From NCBI GenBank assembly GCA_030324005.1, contig JARDVH010000149.1:22080116-22144115 (forward strand): a DNA stretch of 64,000 nt, given 5' to 3'. The position numbers were made by a program, and so were the translations under genes. Positions 6,951 through 39,911 of this stretch are shown here, in pieces. Below the pieces are notes generated by a model that worked only from the letters and a program-made list of their open reading frames with translations, was not told the DNA's origin and did not search any database. Numbering within the stretch: the first letter of the stretch is position 1; the number at the start of each line of letters is the position of its first letter. Origin of the DNA: Negaprion brevirostris. Its lineage: Eukaryota.

Positions 6951-8907
6951 TTGTGCCAAGCTCCATCCTAGAATACCTGTTGTTTATGTTTCTACTTCTC
7001 GTGTCTTGGATTTATACTACTGTTTATTGTTTTATTTGAACAATTTGTGCTGTTCAGTGTGGCCACAATGCTGCCTTTTTTAGGCAATGAGCTGAGAACT
7101 CATTATATATTTATATTTGCAATTGGTCCAGTCTTCCTTTTGCTTGCAACCACTTGATATACTAATACTTGATATAAATGAGAAGTAGGGTGCAAATTCC
7201 TTAAAAGCTTAGTGTCTCCAGGTAGTTTGTAAAGAATGATGACATCTGTACATCAGATAATGTTGTAATATGGCAGAATAATTTATTGATAAATCTCACT
7301 CAGTTTCAGATTTGTAAGTCATGGGTTCCCACAGTTTCCCTACATTGGAAGCTCTCCTTTTGAATCTGAGGAATTTTCCCAGAGAGCACGGAAGTCTTAT
7401 TATGCCATCTCCTTTTGACCAGTTGGTGATATTAACAGAAGAACAAGTAGTTGGGAGCTTTCATCTTAATAATGGTCACGGACAAAGGAATGGAGGACTG
7501 GACAATTGTAAAACAGGAAATCTATCACAATAAACAACAGTAGATGGAATATTCGTGTGTGAAGGCTGAATGTTTATACATTATATTTTTGATTTGGATG
7601 ATTGAGAGCCAAAATCTTCAGTTCTCAGCGTTAGTTGTGAACCAGTTTTGTTCTAGATTAGGGCTATTTTTGCAATGGTTTGCATCTACTTAATATAGAA
7701 GTTTGCCTGCTGTTCCTGTTTGTTAGGATCTGGCACAATCCTTGGTTGAAATGACAGCTTCAATAATATTTGCATTTGAAAGGAAATAATGCGATAAAAT
7801 CTTGCTTGTAGAGTGCACTATGTTTGTTCTAACAGGATAAAAAGGATTTGTGGTACTGTCAAATCTTTTTCAGTTCAAAGCAACCAGTATGAGTGATATT
7901 ATTTCCAGCTGGTTAAAAATGCATTGAAATTGTTTTTTGAGCGCCTTGGTCTCGGAGCTTTATTTATAGTCAAGGAGCACCACATGACCGCTTGAAACCG
8001 GTGTAACTGGGCTACTGCATAACTTTTAATCTTTCCATTGTTTTTGGAACAGTGCTTGACTTCTGCTAAGGTCCCTATGGTGGCTTAGCTGATACCAAGA
8101 ACTTTATGCGGGGACTTTAAATTACAAATCCACATTCCACCATATTGATTTGGTATTCCAAATGCCTTTTTAAGACTAACAAATAGTTAAAACTAAATAC
8201 TAAATAGCTGTTAAGTTCCTGTGAGCAACTGCTGAAGAAATTTACAAAGGAACATTTATGATTTTGAATGCTAGCTTTTAACAATTTCAAGATTCCTCAG
8301 TTTTGAGATAAATGTAGGTTTCCGTCAAATACAAGCAGGCTATATATTTCCCTGAAATGCTGTCTCACATAAATTAAGAAGGCAAATATACAACCTGTTC
8401 CAAAGTCTTTAATATTTCACCAGTGAATCCATGAAGATGTGTGAACTATAAAGGCAGATAATCTGTGGCAATGTGTCAGCAGAAGAAATGAATTTCAGCC
8501 AGTAGTTTGGTTGAAAGACTTACTTGGTTAACCAGCTTAAAACATTCTAATATATGAAGCTGTTTTATGCTCATTCATACACAAATATTGCTCCAGTCAA
8601 AAGAATTACCCAATTATCAGTTTTATTAATTTTTATCACATTGCCCAATTGTAGCAGGAAGTGCAGATTTACAGTGGTGTAATTCTTTGGTACTGATTGA
8701 TGTAATGTTTTGAAAAATTAAATAAATTGAATTGCATTGCAGCATGTGTAATTATTATAAATATTCTTTAATTGGACACCCTATAGTGGATTGTGATAAT
8801 TCTGATTTCAAGTGCAATGTTTTATAATGAGTTACTTTGGGTCTATAGGTTCCTGTTGTGTTAATGTGGTCTACATTTCATCAGATTATCTCTATGAATA
8901 ATGTATT

Positions 8908-26271: not shown

Positions 26272-27178
26272 GTAAGAAGACTCACAACACCAGGTTAAAG
26301 TGCAACAGGTTTATTTGGTAACACGAGCTTTTGGAGCACTGCCCTTCATCAGGTGAGTGCAGGATTTGGTTCACAAACAGGGCATATTTGGACACAAACT
26401 CAGTTACAAGATAATGGTTGGAATGCGAGTTTAACAGGTAATCAAAACTTTACAGGTGCAGAGAATGCAAGTGGAGAGAGGTTAAGCACAGGTTAAAAGG
26501 TGTGAATTATCTCAAGCTAGGACAATTAGTGAGATTTTGCAAGCCCAGGCAAGTCGTAGGGGTTAGGGATAGTGTGACATGAACCCAAGATCCTGGTTGA
26601 GGCCATCTTCATATGTGCAGAACTTGGCTATCAGTTTCTGCTCGGCAGTTCTGTATTGTGTGTCTTAAAGGCTGCCTTGGAGAACGCTTACTCGAAGATC
26701 AGAGGCTGAAGGTCCTTGACTGCTGAATTGTTCCTGTAAGCGTTCTCCAAGGCAGCCTTCAAAATACACAACAACGTAAAATCGCCGAGCAAAAACTAAT
26801 AGCCAAGTTCCGCATGCATGAGGACAGCCTCACCCGGGATCTTGGGTTCATGTCACACTATCCGTAACCCCCACCATTTGGCCTGGGCTTGCAAAATCTC
26901 ACTAACTGTCCTGGCTTGAGACAATTCACATCTCTTTAACCGGTGCTTTACCCTGTCTCCACATGCATTGTCTGCCCCTGTAAAGACTTGCATTCCACCA
27001 TTATCTTGTTGAGCTTGTGTCTATATATGCCCTATTTGTGAATCAAATCCTGCATTCACTTGATGAAGGGGCAGTGCTCTGAAAGCTTGTGCTAGCAAAT
27101 AAACCTGTTGGACTTTTAGCTGGTGTTGTGAGACTTCTTACTGTGCCTACCCCAGTCCAACACCGGCATCTCCACATC
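26272..27178. mobile_element. Penelope-like element 3' end in inverted (palindromic) configuration
   Basis: Arms 26272-26691 and 26736-27141 are reverse complements. The right arm encodes 'VSVLQGSLQNTQQRKIAEQKLIAKFRMHEDSLTRDLGFMSHY' (GIY-YIG C-terminus). Hammerhead-like cores; ~15-bp flanking direct repeat (26259-26273 / 27178-27192, 13/15 match). Confidence 0.85.
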
Positions 27179-27413: not shown

Positions 27414-27546
27414 TTTGATTTGATTTAATATTGTCATATGTATTGGTATACAATGAAAACTGTTATTTCTTGCGTGGTATCAGACAAAACATACTGTTCA
27501 TAAAATACATAGGGGAGAAGGAAAAGAGAGGGTACAGAATATAGTG
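27414..27546 (-). mobile_element. Rex1-like 3' UTR stub
   Basis: Same 'tttgatttgattta.tattgtca' tail and 3' UTR as the 11780 and 12979 copies. Confidence 0.7.
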
Positions 27547-27828
27547 GTTTGTAAATTTCTGACAAAATCCTCAGCAAACTAGTGTAATGTTTTTGAAGAA
27601 GCAGAAGTAATGTATTTGAGCTGGTCCAATAATTAAATAGTTGGTTGGTTTAATACAGTAAAATTGTTAATGCAGTTAACATCGAAGCCACGAGCATGTG
27701 TGCCTGCAGTAAACTTCAGTGCATCAACAAGAATTATGGAATAAAATTACTTTTGTTTAATTGCTGTTTTTTTTACTGACAATAATAAAATTTAGAAAAA
27801 TAATTCTGGTTTTCCTTTTTGGCTTTAG

Positions 27829-27873
27829 GTTATGGGGCACCATATGGTTACAGTGCTGCTGCCCCAGCTTACG
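27829..27873 (+). CDS. STRBP: STRBP penultimate 45-nt exon (GYGAPYGYSAAAPAY)
   Basis: ttccttttt..tttag| acceptor, ACG|gtatgt donor, phase 1-1. Matches STRBP 'GYGTPYGYSTAAPAY'. Confidence 0.94.
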
Positions 27874-29795
27874 GTATGTATGGCAACGCAATGGATTATG
27901 ACTCTAAGATGACTGTCATTTCCTTAGTGCCTTAATCTAGAACATGTATATCTCTGCATTGTGCAGAGATATATATATGTATGTGAACACTGACAACCCT
28001 TCAAGTACTCAAAGTCCCTTTCCTGGTTTTTGAATGTATATTCAACCATGGTGAAAATATTTCAAATTTCCACAGCTCACTTTTGATTTTCACTTGTTAT
28101 GTTTGTAAAGTAGGATTACAGGGAGTGTGGAATATATTATGAATTCATAAAATTATGGAGTATTTTCCCAAAAGCAGTATGAACTTTTATTATCTTACGT
28201 ACTTTGAAGGGTTCAATGTTACATTGAATTAAAACACAAGGTATTGTTTTTAAGTAGCAACTAGTTCATTCTGATTTACATACTTGTACAAAAACAGTCC
28301 AATTGTCGTTTTGACCCAATTTAAAACTCAGTAGAAGAAATCAGCATAACCTTGTGGTTCTTCTCATGGTTGGAGCTCCTCCTTGCAAAGATTTGTCCAG
28401 TTGTAAAGGGACTGCTTGTAAACTGCTTGTCCCCTTCCATGCCAGAGTGTACATTTTATTAAATGTAGTCCCAGTGCTTACAGCCATTAGATGCTCTATT
28501 CAAAGCAAACTGCACTGCCAGACAAATTAACAAGTTGACTGCATTAACATTTATTTAGTTCACTGCTGCAATTACTCTTCTTCCATAGCCTTAAGCAGGC
28601 ATAATTAATTTTAAAGTTGTAAATGTAAAATGAACCTTAATTACTTGAAATGTAACAGCATTTGTGTTTGTAAAATTTGAATTTTTAATTCTGATGTTAT
28701 TGAATAATATGCCATTTTCAAATTTGGCTAATTTTTTCAATCAGTTATTACAATTTCAAGGAACTGTGGAACATGGATATATTGTGGTTATTTAGCTTCA
28801 AAATTATAACCCAGTTGATTAGCAGCAAAACAGGTGGAACGTCAACACTTATGCCCATCTCACGGGTTGGCTTTTTACAGTGTGCTATCCTTGACAGCTG
28901 AAGGACTTAGTGAAATGGCTGCAATTTTAGGCACTAGTGTGACTTTGGAAAATATTTAATCTTGTTAACAAGTTTGTCTGTGGCCAAAATGAATCCCTCC
29001 CCAACTGATAAACTTGTTGCTTTGTTCCTAATTTTCCCAATTTTTCAAATTTTTACACTCAACTTAATCATTACCTTGTTTAACCCTGGTTGAGGCTATA
29101 ATGAGGAAAGGATTTAAACTTGATTTAAAATTGGCAGTTAAAGTATTCAAGATGAACAGCAGCATTATTAGTATTCTAATCTAGTAAGTTACCATTTTAA
29201 GGACTTAATTTTAAGTTTGTATTTTTCTAGTAAACAAAGCAAGCCCTTAAGCCCTTTTTCAGGGACATTTAAGCCTGTGACCCACTTTCAGTATAACAGG
29301 TAAATGTTTAACACTGGAAAGGTATATCAATTGGCTCAAGCTTTTACAACCTTTTGACTGTTCATACACCTTTGTTGTATTGTCAAATACATTTTCTAAT
29401 GTTAGAACAATACTGACAGATTTCCATAATTTACTAAAATAAGCTCGATTTAATCACAAAAACTGGCACCATGCTGTTGCTTTGAATGAGCCTTATGTGC
29501 AAATGATGACAAGCAAATGTAAGATTTATTTGGAGCCTGAGTTGGGCTGCACACGTGAGCGGTTTGAGTATCACATGAGTTCCAAATATAAATCTGCAAA
29601 GTTTGCTATTACAGTCACAGCTGGCATGTGTCTGAAATAACTTACCTGATGTATTTCTAAAATCAATCCTGAACACTACAGTTTGTATTTTGTCAGTTTG
29701 GTGTGCAGCAATGTTCAACGAGGTCCAAATTAATGTTATTTCCTAGAAATAATCATTGTCATCATTTCTCACATAAAGGCCCTGTGTTTTTCCAG

Positions 29796-29871
29796 TGTCT
29801 AGATGTGATGCAAAACAATATTTGACACGGCTGTTTTCTTGGCTGTAGGTTGAAAGTGTCTTAATGCCTTT
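29796..29871 (+). CDS. STRBP: Candidate hidden alternative exon of STRBP encoding VSRCDAKQYLTRLFSWL* (stop 29846-29848)
   Basis: tgtgtttttccag| acceptor with CTCAC branch-point motif at 29768-29772. Phase-1 compatible with the 27873 donor. Candidate donor TTT|gtaagc at 29872; TGCATG at 29881. Confidence 0.45.
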
Positions 29872-30548
29872 GTAAGCTGTTGCATGTTGGGAAATTTGCA
29901 CTTCAGTCATCTGGTGCTGTTAAAACACCTACTGTTGCTGCTTTGTGATTTCTAATGAAGATAAAAATTGAGAATAAGAAATCTGTCTAGATACTTAGAA
30001 TTCTGTGAGGCCACAAGAACTTAGTATTCAACCAAATAACATTAATTAACAACCCGTAGACCTTTCCAGATCTGCTGTTCAAATAACTTGTGGAATAACT
30101 TTTCTGTAGATGACATTCGATTTAGATACAATCTTGAGAAAAATAGATAGTGTGGTCTTTTGTGGAAGCATGATGTAAATTTATGGTAGCATCTGTAGTG
30201 AACATTTGCTGCCCAAATGTGCTAGGAACTACACTTTTAAATGATTTGGAATTCTAATTTCCTGCAGACACTGTTGTATCAAGATAAAGATTGGAGTGTA
30301 ACAATCAATGTCCAAGTCCACCTCCAATGCGAAAACAACTTATTTGTACGTTTAGTTGAAATAATTTTCATTTTTTCAAATTGTTCCAGTGTTAACCGTT
30401 GCTGATTATTAAATCTGGCAAAATATTCCATTAAAAGATAGAAAGGTTCTGCTTCACTGCAGGAACACTTATTAGAGGGAAAATGAAAGCTTTCTGAGTT
30501 AAGAAAGAGAGAATATTTTACTAACATAATGGAATTGTATAATGAAAA

Positions 30549-30833
30549 GGACAGCACAGTGGCGTAGCGGTTAGCACCGCTGCCTCACAGCGCCAGGGAC
30601 TTGGATTCGATTCCCAGCTTGAGTCATTGTGAGGGGTTTGCACGTTCTCTCTGTGTCTGCGTGGGTTTCCTCCCGGTACTCTGGTTTCCTCCCAGAGTCC
30701 GAAAGACATGCTGGTTAGGTGCGTTAGCTGTGCTAAATTCTCCCTCAGTATACCCGAGTGTCAAGGGGATTTTCAAAGTAACTTCATTGCAGTGTTAATG
30801 TAAGACTACTTGTGACACTAATAAATAAACTTT
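30549..30833 (+). mobile_element. V-SINE, variant with a different 3' tail
   Basis: Head 'ggacagcacagtggcgtagcggttagcaccgctgcctcacagcgccagggac', V-domain, tail ending 'ataaataaacttt'. Confidence 0.8.
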
Positions 30834-31403
30834 AAAAATCTTTTAAAAATGCTGCTCCAGTGGTTTATTTTGTATTCTGTTTTCTTTAAACTACATGAAT
30901 TAAATAGATACCTCAATTTGTTATATAGAATTAGCAGCATTGCAGCCATACTTAGTAGCCCATTTAATAATTGTGTGATACTATTTCTGCCCCGATATCC
31001 TTTTCCACAATGTCAGATTTTATCCCAAATGAATCTATTTTGCAAATAATAAATTTATGTTCAGCAAGATAAGTTTTATTTTTAAAAATAGCATGTAAAG
31101 AAATGTTCAAAGCTTCGTGGTTTCCAGTACTTACTTAAAAGTACAATATGGGGACGGATGTGGATAAAATGTGAAGTTTCCACACATTGTTGATTTACAG
31201 TTTCTGCTTGTTAGCATTAATTTTAATGCTGAGAATTTGTCAGCTTGCTCAATAAAATTAGATGGTATATATAAAGAAAAATAAATAAGTTGAAATTGAA
31301 TGGCTAATCTGGAAAGATCTATGGTAACAGAACCTTATATTCTTAAGTCAATTTAATGGACCATTAAACTTATTTGGGGTCCTTTCGTTTCTTCTCTCTA
31401 TAG

Positions 31404-31486
31404 GTTTGCCAGGCAAGAGAATGCTTCTGTTCCCTGTTATGAAAATTCCAACATCTCCTGTTCCCCTTTACTCCTTTTTCAGCTAA
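31404..31486 (+). CDS. STRBP: STRBP canonical terminal coding exon (GLPGKRMLLFPVMKIPTSPVPLYSFFS*)
   Basis: cttctctctatag| acceptor, phase 1, TAA at 31484-31486. Homologous to the mammalian end '[25 protein letters not shown]'. Confidence 0.93.
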
Positions 31487-32990
31487 TTACTGTATTAGAA
31501 GCCTAACAACTGATTCTGATCACAATAGCAAAAAAAGTGAGCATTAGGAGAAAAAAGTTGCTTTTTTAATTAAATTTCTTTTGAAAATGTTGTATGAAGC
31601 AAATTATTTGTAAAATAATTTTTCCTATCTTTTTGATTTTAACAAAAAGGCTTAGTTCATTAAAACTTGAAGATGTACTGTGAAATGTTACCTCATTCTC
31701 AATATAACTTATGCCAGCCTTCTGTGGTAGAAAGTAATAAACTTTAAAAAGAAAAACCTCACAAACATTTTAATTGATTTATAGCTTCTGAAGAATTTTA
31801 TGGAAGCTTATTTGTGAAGGATGTATAGATAATAGATCTCTGATCACAAATAAACACTTTCTGTTTCAGAACCAGCCAGCGTATTGCCTGTTTTATAAAT
31901 CTCTTTATGTAGCAAAGCCTTAACCCAGTATTGTGCATATGCTCTGTACTGGCCATCATTTGTGTAATGAAAATGGTGTTTTCCCTCCTGAAATTTTATA
32001 ATTAGTTTGTATTAATTTATTTCAAAATTTAGTTTGTGTTGTTCCAAAACACTCAAGTTAGGTCAAATTGGTGGTAAGTCTTATACAAATGATGGAAGCT
32101 GCAAATGAGCTAATATACCTATGTCCTTCCTAAGATCCTGGTATGAAGCATGTGTGTTAAAATTGGCTTAAGGCTATCTTGCCTCCATAATATTATATTT
32201 GGTTCTTGTGGCCTTTTTTATAGTTACTGAGATGCATCTTGACTTTGCATTAGTTGCTTCTAGGTAGATAGGTTTTTAATTGATGAGCTGTAGTACAAAA
32301 ACAAAAAAATCTCCTTTTCTAAGGATCTTTTTCCCACTGCACAAAATGAAGAATCTGAAGCAGCAACAAGGTCCCCATGGATATTCGCTACTTAATTGTC
32401 CCAATTCTTGTTGAGTGCTGCTGTTTTTTTTAAAAAGTGACACGTCTCACCCATGGGCCATCATTCTTGCATCATTGTCAAGCCTAACAGAACTTCAGAT
32501 GCTTGTGTTTATATAATTGTTAACCAACATTTTTTTATCCCGATGCCCTTTTTGTGTATATGCATGCCTTTTGTGAAAATGATATGCCACTTTTATAGGC
32601 TTTGAGAATTATTTTAAGATCATCCTTGATTACATCACTTTCTTCCTAAGATTAAGGTACCAATCAGTTTGTTTGCAGTTTATTCCTGAGAAGGACACCT
32701 TCCTCTTAAAATCTTTTGACTTTATTGGACTGTGGTAAGGATGGAAGTCAATGATAGCAGTTTATCAAGGTGTGTACGAAAAGTCAGACTTAATTCTAAA
32801 TTGACCAGTATGTTAAGAATTTCGTGCTAGGGATCTTGATACTCTGTTAGGAAAGTGCTTAAAGGGACATGAAGCATGAGATTTCTTACCAAAATTGCAA
32901 ATCCCTACTTAATAAAATCTGAAAGATTGTATATTTTCCACTGCAAAACCCCTTAACAAATATGTGCATATGCTGCACTTGTGAAACGCA
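31487..32990 (+). other. STRBP: Putative STRBP 3' UTR of the canonical last exon
   Basis: Repeat-free AU-rich stretch after the stop, with AATAAA at 31736, 31849 and 32911. The end is uncertain; a CR1 begins at ~33004. Confidence 0.55.
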
Positions 32991-33003
32991 AAATATGTAT
33001 ATT

Positions 33004-34480
33004 ATAGAATCATACAGCATAGAAATAGATTATTCAGCCCATTATATCTGTGTCAGTTCTTTGAAAAATCAATCCAGTTAGTCCAGTTCTCCTGCCCTTT
33101 CTCTAAGAACTGATTTTTTTTCCCCCAAGTATTTATCCAGTTACCCTCTGAGAGTTATTAAATCTAATTCTTCTACTATCAGGCAGTGCATTCTTTAATA
33201 AGTTGCCAAGTTCTTCACTTCTGCCATCCTTTGTGTGAGGAGGTTTCTCCTAATTTATCTCCTAATGGCCGCCTTATGATTTTAAAGCTATGTTTCTTGT
33301 TTTAAAATCCCCAACCAGTGGGAAATTTTTCTCTCCATCTAATCAATCATTTCAAAATCCTTTAAAAAAAACTTAATTGAATCACCCCTTAGCCTACTAT
33401 ATCCCAGGAGATACCAGAAAACCTAATTTATGTGATCTCTCAATGTCATCTAACTCTTGGAGCCATGGTGACATCCCCTTCCAAATGCAATGCCCAGAAT
33501 TGGACACACTTCACCAGCTGGGACCTAACCGGTGATTTACAATAGTTTAGCATAGTTTTCTTGCTTTTGTTCTCTATTATTCTATTTACAAAGCCACGCA
33601 CCCCATTTGCTTTAGTTTAAACAACTCTGCTCCATTTCCTGCCACCTGCCATCTTCTGTATAGGGCACTGGTGAGGCCGCAGCTGGAGTTCTGTGTGCAA
33701 TTTTGGTCGCCGCACTTACGCAAGGATATTTTGGTCTTGGAGGGAGTGCAGAGGAGGTTTACTAGGCTGATACCGGANNNNNNNNNNNNNNNNNNNNNNN
33801 NNNNNNNNNNNNNNNNNNNNNNNNNNNNNNNNNNNNNNNNNNNNNNNNNNNNNNNNNNNNNNNNNNNNNNNNNNNNNTGGCAGGGCAGGCTCGAGGGGCT
33901 AGATGGCCTACTCCTGCTCCTATTTCTTATGTTCTTATTACAAAGATTTGCATACAAACACCAATGTCTTATTATCCTTGCATCCCCTTAAAATTGTAAT
34001 TTAGTTTATATTACCCAGTAAATTATGTTTAAATTTATATATTATGTATCATAAATTCAAATATAGTTATATATAAATATATATTTCCGACTGAAATGCA
34101 TCACTTCACACTTCTGTTAAATTGCATCGACTGTCTGTCGGCCCGTTTTGCCAGCCTGTCTCTATCCTCCTGAATTCTGTTTCTGTCCGCCTGACTGATT
34201 ACTACATTTTTTGAGTTTCATTCAGACTTTGAAATCATGCCCTATATATTCAAGATCAGATCCTTAATATATTTCAAGGACAGCAAGACCAAATCATTAA
34301 TATAGCTATCAAGGATAGCCAATGATCCTAGTAGCTGAACCCTGGAGGTATGACTGTTTACTTCTCTCCAGCCTGTAAAACAGCTGTTCATCACTGCTTT
34401 CAACCTCTTTGCCAATTTCATATCTATATTATTGCCCTCTTAACCTGTGGGCCTCAATTTTGCTCACATGTCATTGCATT
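33004..34480 (-). mobile_element. Older CR1 LINE 3' part, interrupted by a younger + strand CR1
   Basis: Antisense CR1 tail 'atagaatcatacagcatagaa', 'cccagaattggacacact'. Continues after 33940. Confidence 0.65.
33654..33937 (+). mobile_element. Young CR1 3' fragment nested in the older CR1
   Basis: '[40 protein letters not shown]' and tail 'ggcctactcctgctcctatttcttatgttctt'. CpGs retained. Confidence 0.85.
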
Positions 34481-38340: not shown

Positions 38341-39816
38341 TGTGGGTGAAGAAAGGGTTTCCATGAATCTTCTGACACTATGGAACATAAAAGCTTGGCT
38401 GAAACCTACATGAATGTTATAAAATGGATTTTTCAAAAGTGCTTTACAAACACAGATTTTCATTTTTATATGATGAATTATGTTGATAAGCTGACTTTAA
38501 TACCTACGTGCAGAATGCTACTATTATTTTATTGCTGTTTTTGCTGGCGGAGGGCACATGAATTTTCAAGCTTTTTTATATATATTATATATATATATAA
38601 AACATACACATATATTTGTTCATGGAATGCAGGCATTGCTGGCAAGGCCAGGCTTTGTTACCATTTTTAATTGCCCTTGAGAAGTTGGTGGTGAGTATGG
38701 AGCCACATTGGAAAATAGTTTGCAAAAACTGTTATATTCCTTTGCTTCACTTCGCTTCGCATGCACCTCGTCCAGCAAGGTCATGTTCTGTTGTTCATGC
38801 ACTAACTGCTGAAATGCTGAGGTCACTATGGTGATTTGCTACAGACACATTGGAAGTAATTGAAGATAACAAAGGGAAAGCTAATGTTTTCACCCGCTCA
38901 AAGTCTAATAATTCCACCCATTTCAAGTGGCTTAGACATACATGCATTTTTGCTACAGATCATAAAAGATGCTCTGNNNNNNNNNNNNNNNNNNNNNNNN
39001 NNNNNNNNNNNNNNNNNNNNNNNNNNNNNNNNNNNNNNNNNNNNNNNNNNNNNNNNNNNNNNNNNNNNNNNNNNNNNNNNNNNNNNNNNNNNNNNNNNNN
39101 NNNNNNNNNNNNNNNNNNNNNNNNNNNNNNNNNNNNNNNNNNNNNNNNNNNNNNNNNNNNNNNNNNNNNNNNNNNNNNNNNNNNNNNNNNNNNNNNNNNN
39201 NNNNAATAAATTCAGAAATATTTGTCCAAATGCAATCCCTCAACTGTAATGTTGAAATTATCTTTGCAACAATTCTTGTTGCTTTGCAAGGCGGTCTTAA
39301 TTTCATGGACATTCATACTGTTGGCTTTTGTGATTTGCAAGGCCGAATTTTGAACACGTGCCATTTATTGTCCCAAGTTCTATTCAGTTTGTTTTGCTGA
39401 CCTTTAGATAAAACAATATTTGATGTTAGCATTACTGCTGCTTATAACTTTGTCAAATTCAAACATGTTAGTCATATCCCAGAACGTAGATCTATCAGCA
39501 AGCAGTTGTACACTTCCAAAATGATGCTTGAGATTGTTTCATAATGTATAAACTTTTTGTTTATTCCAAGTGACTAACCACAATGTCTGAAACTCCAGTT
39601 GCTGAAAATTTTACATTTCTCTGCTTTATTTAAAATGAGCTTTTTATCAAAGTAGGAAATGTGTGACTTGAATGCCTTTGACAAAGAATGTCCCGTTTGC
39701 AATGAAAATTCCACATACAGCTAAAGGAGCAGAGAAATATAAATGCTAATGGAACAGCTTCACTGCAGTGATAATTAATGTGCAGTTTTGCTTCTCTGCT
39801 TTTTTCCTTACTGTAG

Positions 39817-39911
39817 GTGGTTTTTTCATTGACAATCCATAGTACCAGCCTCGGGCCATCGCACCTTTTATTATTCACTTGGGTCCTCAGGATTTCGACT
39901 CTGACTTCTAG
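39817..39911 (+). CDS. STRBP: Candidate distal alternative last exon of STRBP: GGFFIDNP*YQPRAIAPFIIHLGPQDFDSDF*
   Basis: Strong acceptor (cttctctgcttttttccttactgtag|), phase-1 compatible. Internal TAG at 39840-39842, second TAG at 39909-39911. Resembles an alternative STRBP C-terminus as I recall it (unverified). Confidence 0.6.

Follow-up and report, generated by a model that had tools for sequence, protein, structure and literature searches.

Does a folded element in the intron that follows the penultimate coding exon of STRBP influence which 3' end the transcript of this double-stranded RNA (dsRNA)-binding protein acquires? The question was raised by a preliminary description of the window, i.e., the whole stretch of 64,000 nucleotides of Negaprion brevirostris DNA that was analysed (positions are counted from its first letter, and all features given below lie on the plus strand unless stated otherwise). 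It had claimed a non-repeat, multi-stem RNA fold that buries the 3' splice site of a hidden exon in the last intron of STRBP. The 14 strings and sites that it quoted all proved to be in place, and the joined exon translates as VSRCDAKQYLTRLFSWL*.

STRBP, its ordinary last exons and conservation along the intron

The window comprises the 3' half of STRBP, whose exons match shark STRBP proteins mostly at 85-99% identity. In tblastn searches with these proteins the penultimate coding exon (GYGAPYGYSAAAPAY) was placed at 27829-27873, and its donor (27873|27874) is common to all 3' variants of the gene. Two ordinary last exons were distinguished: (i) a proximal one, with its coding part (GLPGKR...FFS) at 31404-31486, located by contig junctions and tblastn, and (ii) a distal alternative one, with its coding part (GGFFID...DSDF) at 39817-39911, located by protein match. 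The junction 27873>31404 is present in contigs of runs X1, X2 and X4 (three of the four runs of the first comparison). GLPGKR... and GGFFID... are the dominant tails among 43 cartilaginous-fish STRBP proteins, a set of cluster representatives plus at most 15 listed members per cluster; the exact 31404 tail occurs in 23 of the 43, and GGFFID-type tails are found in records of sharks, rays, chimaera, coelacanth, caecilian and turtle. The assignment of the fold to the "last intron" of STRBP is therefore right as to the gene, but the intron is the last one for the GLPGKR isoform only, a second terminal exon being located at 39817-39911.

Several other features of the region were recorded. The distal exon of the window carries an in-frame TAG at 39840-42, at a position occupied by tyrosine in 13 other cartilaginous-fish proteins, which may reflect a truncation specific to this lineage or else a mistake in the assembly. 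A SINE-like, high-copy insertion is present at 30552-30838; the contig of run X4 spans 30112-30926 with about 280 fewer bases, and the insertion is likely absent from the X4 organism. The strongest hairpin of the window (26551-26850, -160.7 kcal/mol) is an inverted pair of repeat fragments, near which a frame (26727-26867) may correspond to the end of a Penelope-like endonuclease.

Conservation was assessed with assembled contigs from seven of 22 listed sequencing runs of related organisms (contigs that we guess to be of RNA origin). Run X4 provides one contig across the region, in which all 33 listed substitutions are visible, and is the only run with both arms of the stem and a complete change list; its background, determined for four other alignable intron pieces, is 154 changes in 1399 positions (11%). 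Against this background, the flank preceding the stem (29410-29489) is conserved (3/80 changes, p 0.02), and the arms of the stem are borderline (7/119, p 0.049, in a comparison limited to sharks and their relatives). The conservation peak is located at 29821-29937 (2/117 changes, p 0.0002), and its distal part (29872-29937), with a donor-like GTAAGC (29872), is the most conserved stretch (0/66), as judged from the changes in X4, X8 and X12. The splice signals and the nearby TGCATG pointed out in the preliminary description are confirmed, the TGCATG (29881-86) lying within this very stretch. In run X8, 21 of 173 positions are changed over 29504-29676, versus 2 of 131 over a wider stretch that includes the peak, where X12 has 1 change in 109. 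A 73-base contig of X12 at about 29789-29861 has a depth of 15.7, versus 5.3 and 6.1 alongside, and its ends fit no predicted splice site.

A more distant comparison came from the minus-strand reading of 29746-29919, which was searched against 1.84 billion proteins and gave two matches. We discarded one of them, the unrelated repeat protein P0224. The other (P0223; E 3.5e-4, 23 of 41 residues identical pairwise) comes from a more distant organism, where a spurious reading frame runs through the homologous intron, and is co-linear with the window from about 30036 to 29696; its base changes were inferred from amino acids and can be read only where a change in the codon also changes the residue. 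No orthologous intron DNA was matched among viral or metagenome contigs, and of 596 pattern hits none was confirmed.

Such a profile might be produced by an element that mainly steers the choice between the last exons at 31404 and 39817, with the acceptor 29848|29849, described below, being a decoy or by-product. Annotation of both tails extends over cartilaginous fishes, coelacanth, caecilians and a turtle, which makes the choice in this intron a conserved one, and among the pieces covered by X4 no other part of the intron is as conserved as the element. The peak, however, falls exactly on the acceptor, the donor-like site and the TGCATG, and the conserved segments have no standout partner near either last exon (the best duplexes, of -12 to -25 kcal/mol, are scattered). 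Docking-site/selector pairing to either last exon was dropped, as nothing outstanding appeared in the duplex search, and we consider steering of the last exons as the main role to be unlikely. An exact 14-base direct repeat (29812-29825, in the element, and 39410-39423, about 400 bases before the distal exon) is within chance (E 0.34).

The predicted stem

Two complementary intronic arms form a stable predicted duplex, the stem 29490-29780. It consists of (i) helix 1, in which 29490-29512 pairs with 29756-29780 (mean pair probability 0.92; about -27 kcal/mol for the duplex with flanks), and (ii) helix 2, in which 29521-29554 pairs with 29701-29737, as judged from ensemble pair probabilities and, for the 3' arm, also from changes in relatives. 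The GC core of helix 2 (GCTGCACAC/GTGTGCAGC) has a pair probability of 0.92 and its AT-rich part one of 0.70. The loop (29555-29700) contains predicted inner helices that are not conserved, and with 13 changes in 146 positions in X4 it is not below background. A perfect 9-pair helix predicted between 29452-29460, in the conserved flank, and 29942-29950 would close the whole 500-base element.

The folding of the entire region 29440-29900, proposed earlier as a check, is indistinguishable from that of shuffled sequence (z 0.12; 52 of 100 shuffles as good). The core 29490-29780, with ends chosen after the fact, gives z -3.09, with none of 150 shuffles as good, and an unbiased local-fold scan of 29100-30200 (1.1 kb) returned 29490-29781 as the best structure (-82.8 kcal/mol), equalled in 4 of 145 block-wise shuffles. 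Taken by itself, helix 1 is not unusual, since a helix as good occurs in 35 of 300 shuffled introns and in 11 of 22 other real blocks of the window, and the raw duplex energy ranks 126 of 1173 windows. The minus strand folds equally well (z -4.29), so folding energy does not pick the strand.

Not all parts of the fold as first drawn were retained. The outer helices, ATCACA/TGTGAT (29804) and ACTGG/CCAGT, have a pair probability of 0.0 in two contexts, and changes in relatives strike both. The side hairpin (29736-29752) reaches 0.62-0.71, but it overlaps helix 2 by two bases and bears substitutions or indels in all three covering runs (X4, X9 and X12) and in P0223. Both were rejected as conserved parts, as was a second predicted hairpin at 29784-29928, over both acceptors (z -2.58; 4 of 200 shuffles), in which two of four changed pairs break in X4 and further ones in P0223, where 29800-29808 is missing. 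The claim that the fold is not a repeat was borne out by a single match of the stretch in its own genome, in a search that skips very common words. Contig depth over the stem is at most 8, whereas the SINE at 30552-30838 has depths ranging from hundreds to more than 100,000, and these two observations speak against a transposon-derived inverted repeat. Rfam covariance models gave no match at E<=1 across 27500-33500.

In the model of the preliminary description, both the branch point and the AG of a 76-base exon (29796-29871) are concealed by the fold, which a dsRNA-binding protein would either open or lock. As to the burial of the 3' splice site, one half of the claim stands: A29771, the A of the CTCAC branch-point-like motif (29768-72), is paired in helix 1. 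The AG at 29794-95 is uncovered, since helix 1 stops at 29780, 14 bases short of it, and the helix meant to cover it is the one with zero probability. The pyrimidine tract and AG (29781-29795, motif only, outside helix 1) include 11 pyrimidines in the 17 bases before the AG, and the motif survives the known changes (CTTAC and T29790C in X4, a longer T run in X9). By splice-site consensus rules the site, with CTCAC, the nearest upstream AG 15 bases off and T at +1, is nevertheless a weaker match than 29848|29849, with TTGAC at -23, a 44-base AG-free zone and G at +1. Moreover, 29781-29820, which comprises the proposed tract, the AG and the first 25 exon bases, changes at the background rate in X4 (4/40). 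Among 222 STRBP proteins, taken from fishes through mammals, not one ends in the VSRC... tail or has VSRC, DAKQ or LTRLF within its final 80 residues, in a set that favours ordinary tails and comprises coding isoforms only. P0223 has a 9-base deletion (29800-29808) and, ahead of 29846, a tract longer by one base, and the proposed peptide and stop are consequently not kept. Among the rows listed, neither a joint nor an exon-like loose end occurs at 29796, 29849 or 29871, in assembled contigs that drop rare variants and so do not argue against use of these sites. The hiding of this exon by the fold is, in our opinion, quite improbable.

The substitutions in relatives are more informative about the stem itself. 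Among the changes listed for helices 1 and 2, 10 of 14 distinct substitutions keep the pair, while the expected fraction is 0.445 (binomial p 0.039). These are (i) C29491T, A29506G, C29770T, G29519A (a weak pair) and A29721G in X4, (ii) C29554T, found in X2, X3, X4 and X8, and (iii) A29733G, A29727G, C29725T and C29706T, inferred in P0223. Nine of the ten are A>G or C>T changes giving G-U, which pairs only on the transcribed strand, and in the 3' arm of helix 2 five of the six inferred P0223 changes at paired sites stay paired in this way. Four pair-breaking changes are listed: G29701C (X4, facing C29554T as U-C), two at 29702-03 (at a loose end in X12) and C29719A (P0223), the calls at 29702-03 and 29719 assuming an unchanged partner; three of them are thus at the inner end (29701-03) and one is at 29719. 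Further inside (29553-29701), 6 of 10 changed pairs are broken. A two-sided compensatory change is absent among the changes listed, with both arms visible in X4 only and the partner arm of P0223, X12, X2 and X8, outside coverage, taken as unchanged. The ten residues read on the minus strand across the 3' arm of helix 1 are identical in P0223. Taken with the fold predictions, this pattern argues that the stem is probably real.

The clustered A>G changes of P0223 (four inferred within 29710-29733, one common to X4) could also be the product of editing, and a duplex is required under either reading. The stem might accordingly be an ADAR editing substrate or a protein platform unrelated to the acceptor, the two being conserved for separate reasons. 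The stem and the 29848 site do not overlap, and STRBP appears among the ADAR1p110 partners in a recent report (10.1101/2025.03.12.642916). Against this, A>G and T>C changes are balanced in X4 (8 and 7, respectively), and species differences look the same as editing when matched DNA is lacking; we rate such a separate function as very unlikely. Least probable of all is conservation at the DNA level (enhancer-like) or of the splice site only, with a fold arisen by chance, for which the z of 0.12 for the whole region, the chance-level strength of helix 1 and the borderline conservation of the arms (p 0.049) may be cited, and against which stand the strand-specific retention of G-U pairs and the outcome of the local-fold scan.

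The acceptor 29848|29849 and stop-carrying tails

An alternative 3' splice site, recognized from ray isoform annotation, is located at 29821-29848 and consists of TTGAC (A at -23), a pyrimidine tract and the AG at 29847-48. In isoform X2 of the electric ray Narcine bancroftii (XP_069744898.1; P0030) the penultimate exon continues into 29849. The protein ends GSKCLNAFVSCCMLGNCTSVTWCC, a tail that aligns with 29849-29923 if one frameshift is allowed; over 29851-29923 its scores are 60 in one frame and 42 in another, as against 15 for the second-best location within 12 kb. The site is 53 bases past 29796, its AG is the stop codon of the 76-base exon proposed first, and it lies outside the stem.

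From this alternative exon start, 23 bases (29849-29871) lead to the donor-like GTAAGC. Translation of the window gives a stop (TGA, 29851-53) directly after 29849, and 14 residues beyond the stop position are identical to the P0030 tail. P0030 reads through the GTAAGC, and the exon starting at 29849 may be a 23-base cassette, a longer exon or a terminal one. Conservation extends to the acceptor, the GT and the TGCAT but not to the peptide encoded after 29849 (a stop in the window, an open frame in P0030 and P0223), a contrast that would be expected if the exon serves regulation and not coding. Usage of 29849 is represented by one predicted isoform among the 43 cartilaginous-fish proteins. Another Narcine isoform (X4; P0034) ends GRGLHT, and the best match of GLHT* in 12 kb is at 29544-29558 (score 24 of 32, the next 19); this short match, which does not place the exact acceptor, suggests one within or near the 5' arm of helix 2 in the ray. 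Both P0030 and P0034 are predicted isoforms of one species.

NMD usually follows when a stop lies about 50 bases or more upstream of the last junction. The distance from the stop to a junction using the donor-like GTAAGC would be 18 bases for the 23-base exon and 23 bases for the 76-base exon. By the 50-base rule a 23-base cassette would likely escape NMD, and a donor further downstream could change the outcome. With the visible GTAAGC donor this distance does not fit a poison exon, for which more than about 50 bases are needed.

Short tails after the same STRBP exon also occur in other vertebrates. The tail AICTCIK* is identical in three records, of ibis, tinamou and turtle (P0204, P0212 and P0215), and the coelacanth (P0182) has AAV*; these two and four other tails could not be placed on the window. 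Such records point to stop-carrying exons after this exon being widespread, and to a conserved one in this intron beyond sharks.

A candidate regulatory module and related systems

We propose that the stem 29490-29780 (about 290 bases) and the acceptor 29848|29849 constitute one conserved intronic module regulating 3'-end splicing of shark and ray STRBP, and give this proposal an even chance of being correct. What is observed is the sequence, its conservation, the ray isoform at 29849 and, further downstream, the pair of ordinary last exons; we connect the stem with the acceptor by inference from their nearness only.

In the proposed mechanism, the stem would form in the STRBP pre-mRNA and would mask acceptor signals of lesser strength that lie within its arms (the CTCAC at 29768-72 and a site near 29535-41), while the acceptor 29848, with its branch point 45 bases beyond the stem, would stay open. 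Splicing to 29849 would end STRBP just past its tyrosine-glycine-rich end, with the loss of both ordinary tails. TGCATG is the binding motif of RBFOX proteins, and its presence ten bases into the donor-like site may let these proteins tune splicing. A dsRNA-binding protein (STRBP, ILF3, ZFR or ADAR) acting on the predicted stem is plausible. One may go further and suppose that STRBP senses its own level, i.e., that STRBP (or ILF3/ZFR with ILF2) on the stem switches between the stop-carrying acceptors and the two last exons, in a feedback loop reaching from sharks to amniotes, with the AICTCIK* isoform as the amniote counterpart. We regard this extension as doubtful, though worth stating; if it is true, the DZF protein family would possess a dsRNA-based autoregulatory switch not described so far.

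Related arrangements are known from other genes. ILF3 has alternative 3' ends, giving NF90 and NF110. In shark ILF3 the matching glycine-tyrosine exon is followed by a short terminal exon that resembles the distal exon of STRBP (GDFFKD.. versus GGFFID..). The shark ILF3 terminal-type exon, GDFFKDSFQDFPSG*, was noted at about 7800-7900 of locus L004 (G000:C179). The 30 kb of shark ILF3 that were compared, 12,118 bases of them N, showed no nucleotide likeness to the STRBP element (best blastn E 0.16). ADAR2 edits its own transcript and thereby generates an additional acceptor within one of its introns. The likeness to STRBP consists in an intronic duplex near alternative acceptors in the pre-mRNA of a dsRNA-binding protein; unlike ADAR2, STRBP is without a deaminase.

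The STRBP element would work like the conserved complementary regions catalogued in human genes (PMC8052449), although that catalogue is human and the element belongs to sharks and rays; five supplementary files, among which the full human catalogue may not be present, contain no STRBP entry. The structure-controlled poison exons of BRD2 (3b) and BRD3 (5b) (PMC10789245) share with STRBP a conserved intronic element, a cryptic stop exon, a nearby duplex and a location in the regulator's own gene. The duplexes of BRD2 and BRD3 were tied to inclusion by minigenes, with NMD as the outcome (PMC10789245), whereas the STRBP stem is wholly upstream of the acceptor, its functional link to it is putative and a 23-base cassette would likely escape NMD. 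DZF proteins have a connection to such elements: in human cells ZFR is enriched on conserved complementary regions and ILF3 eCLIP peaks are not (10.1101/2022.06.15.495552), the ILF3 result counting against the proposed module. A single STRBP row in the supplement of PMC10123112, an 8-base acceptor shift, could not be mapped to the window and seems unlike this element.

No report of the STRBP element was found in open-licence PMC and bioRxiv texts, and one could be held in subscription journals, bioRxiv supplements or the full human catalogue. Within the literature searched, the kind of element is thus known and its STRBP instance is apparently undescribed. To our knowledge, STRBP is the least studied DZF protein. 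The stem, the stop-carrying acceptors and the two last exons together offer a small, precise target for learning how the C-terminus and the level of STRBP are set, and they invite one to ask if a dsRNA-binding protein that lacks catalytic activity controls the splicing of its own transcript by means of structure and not of a sequence motif.
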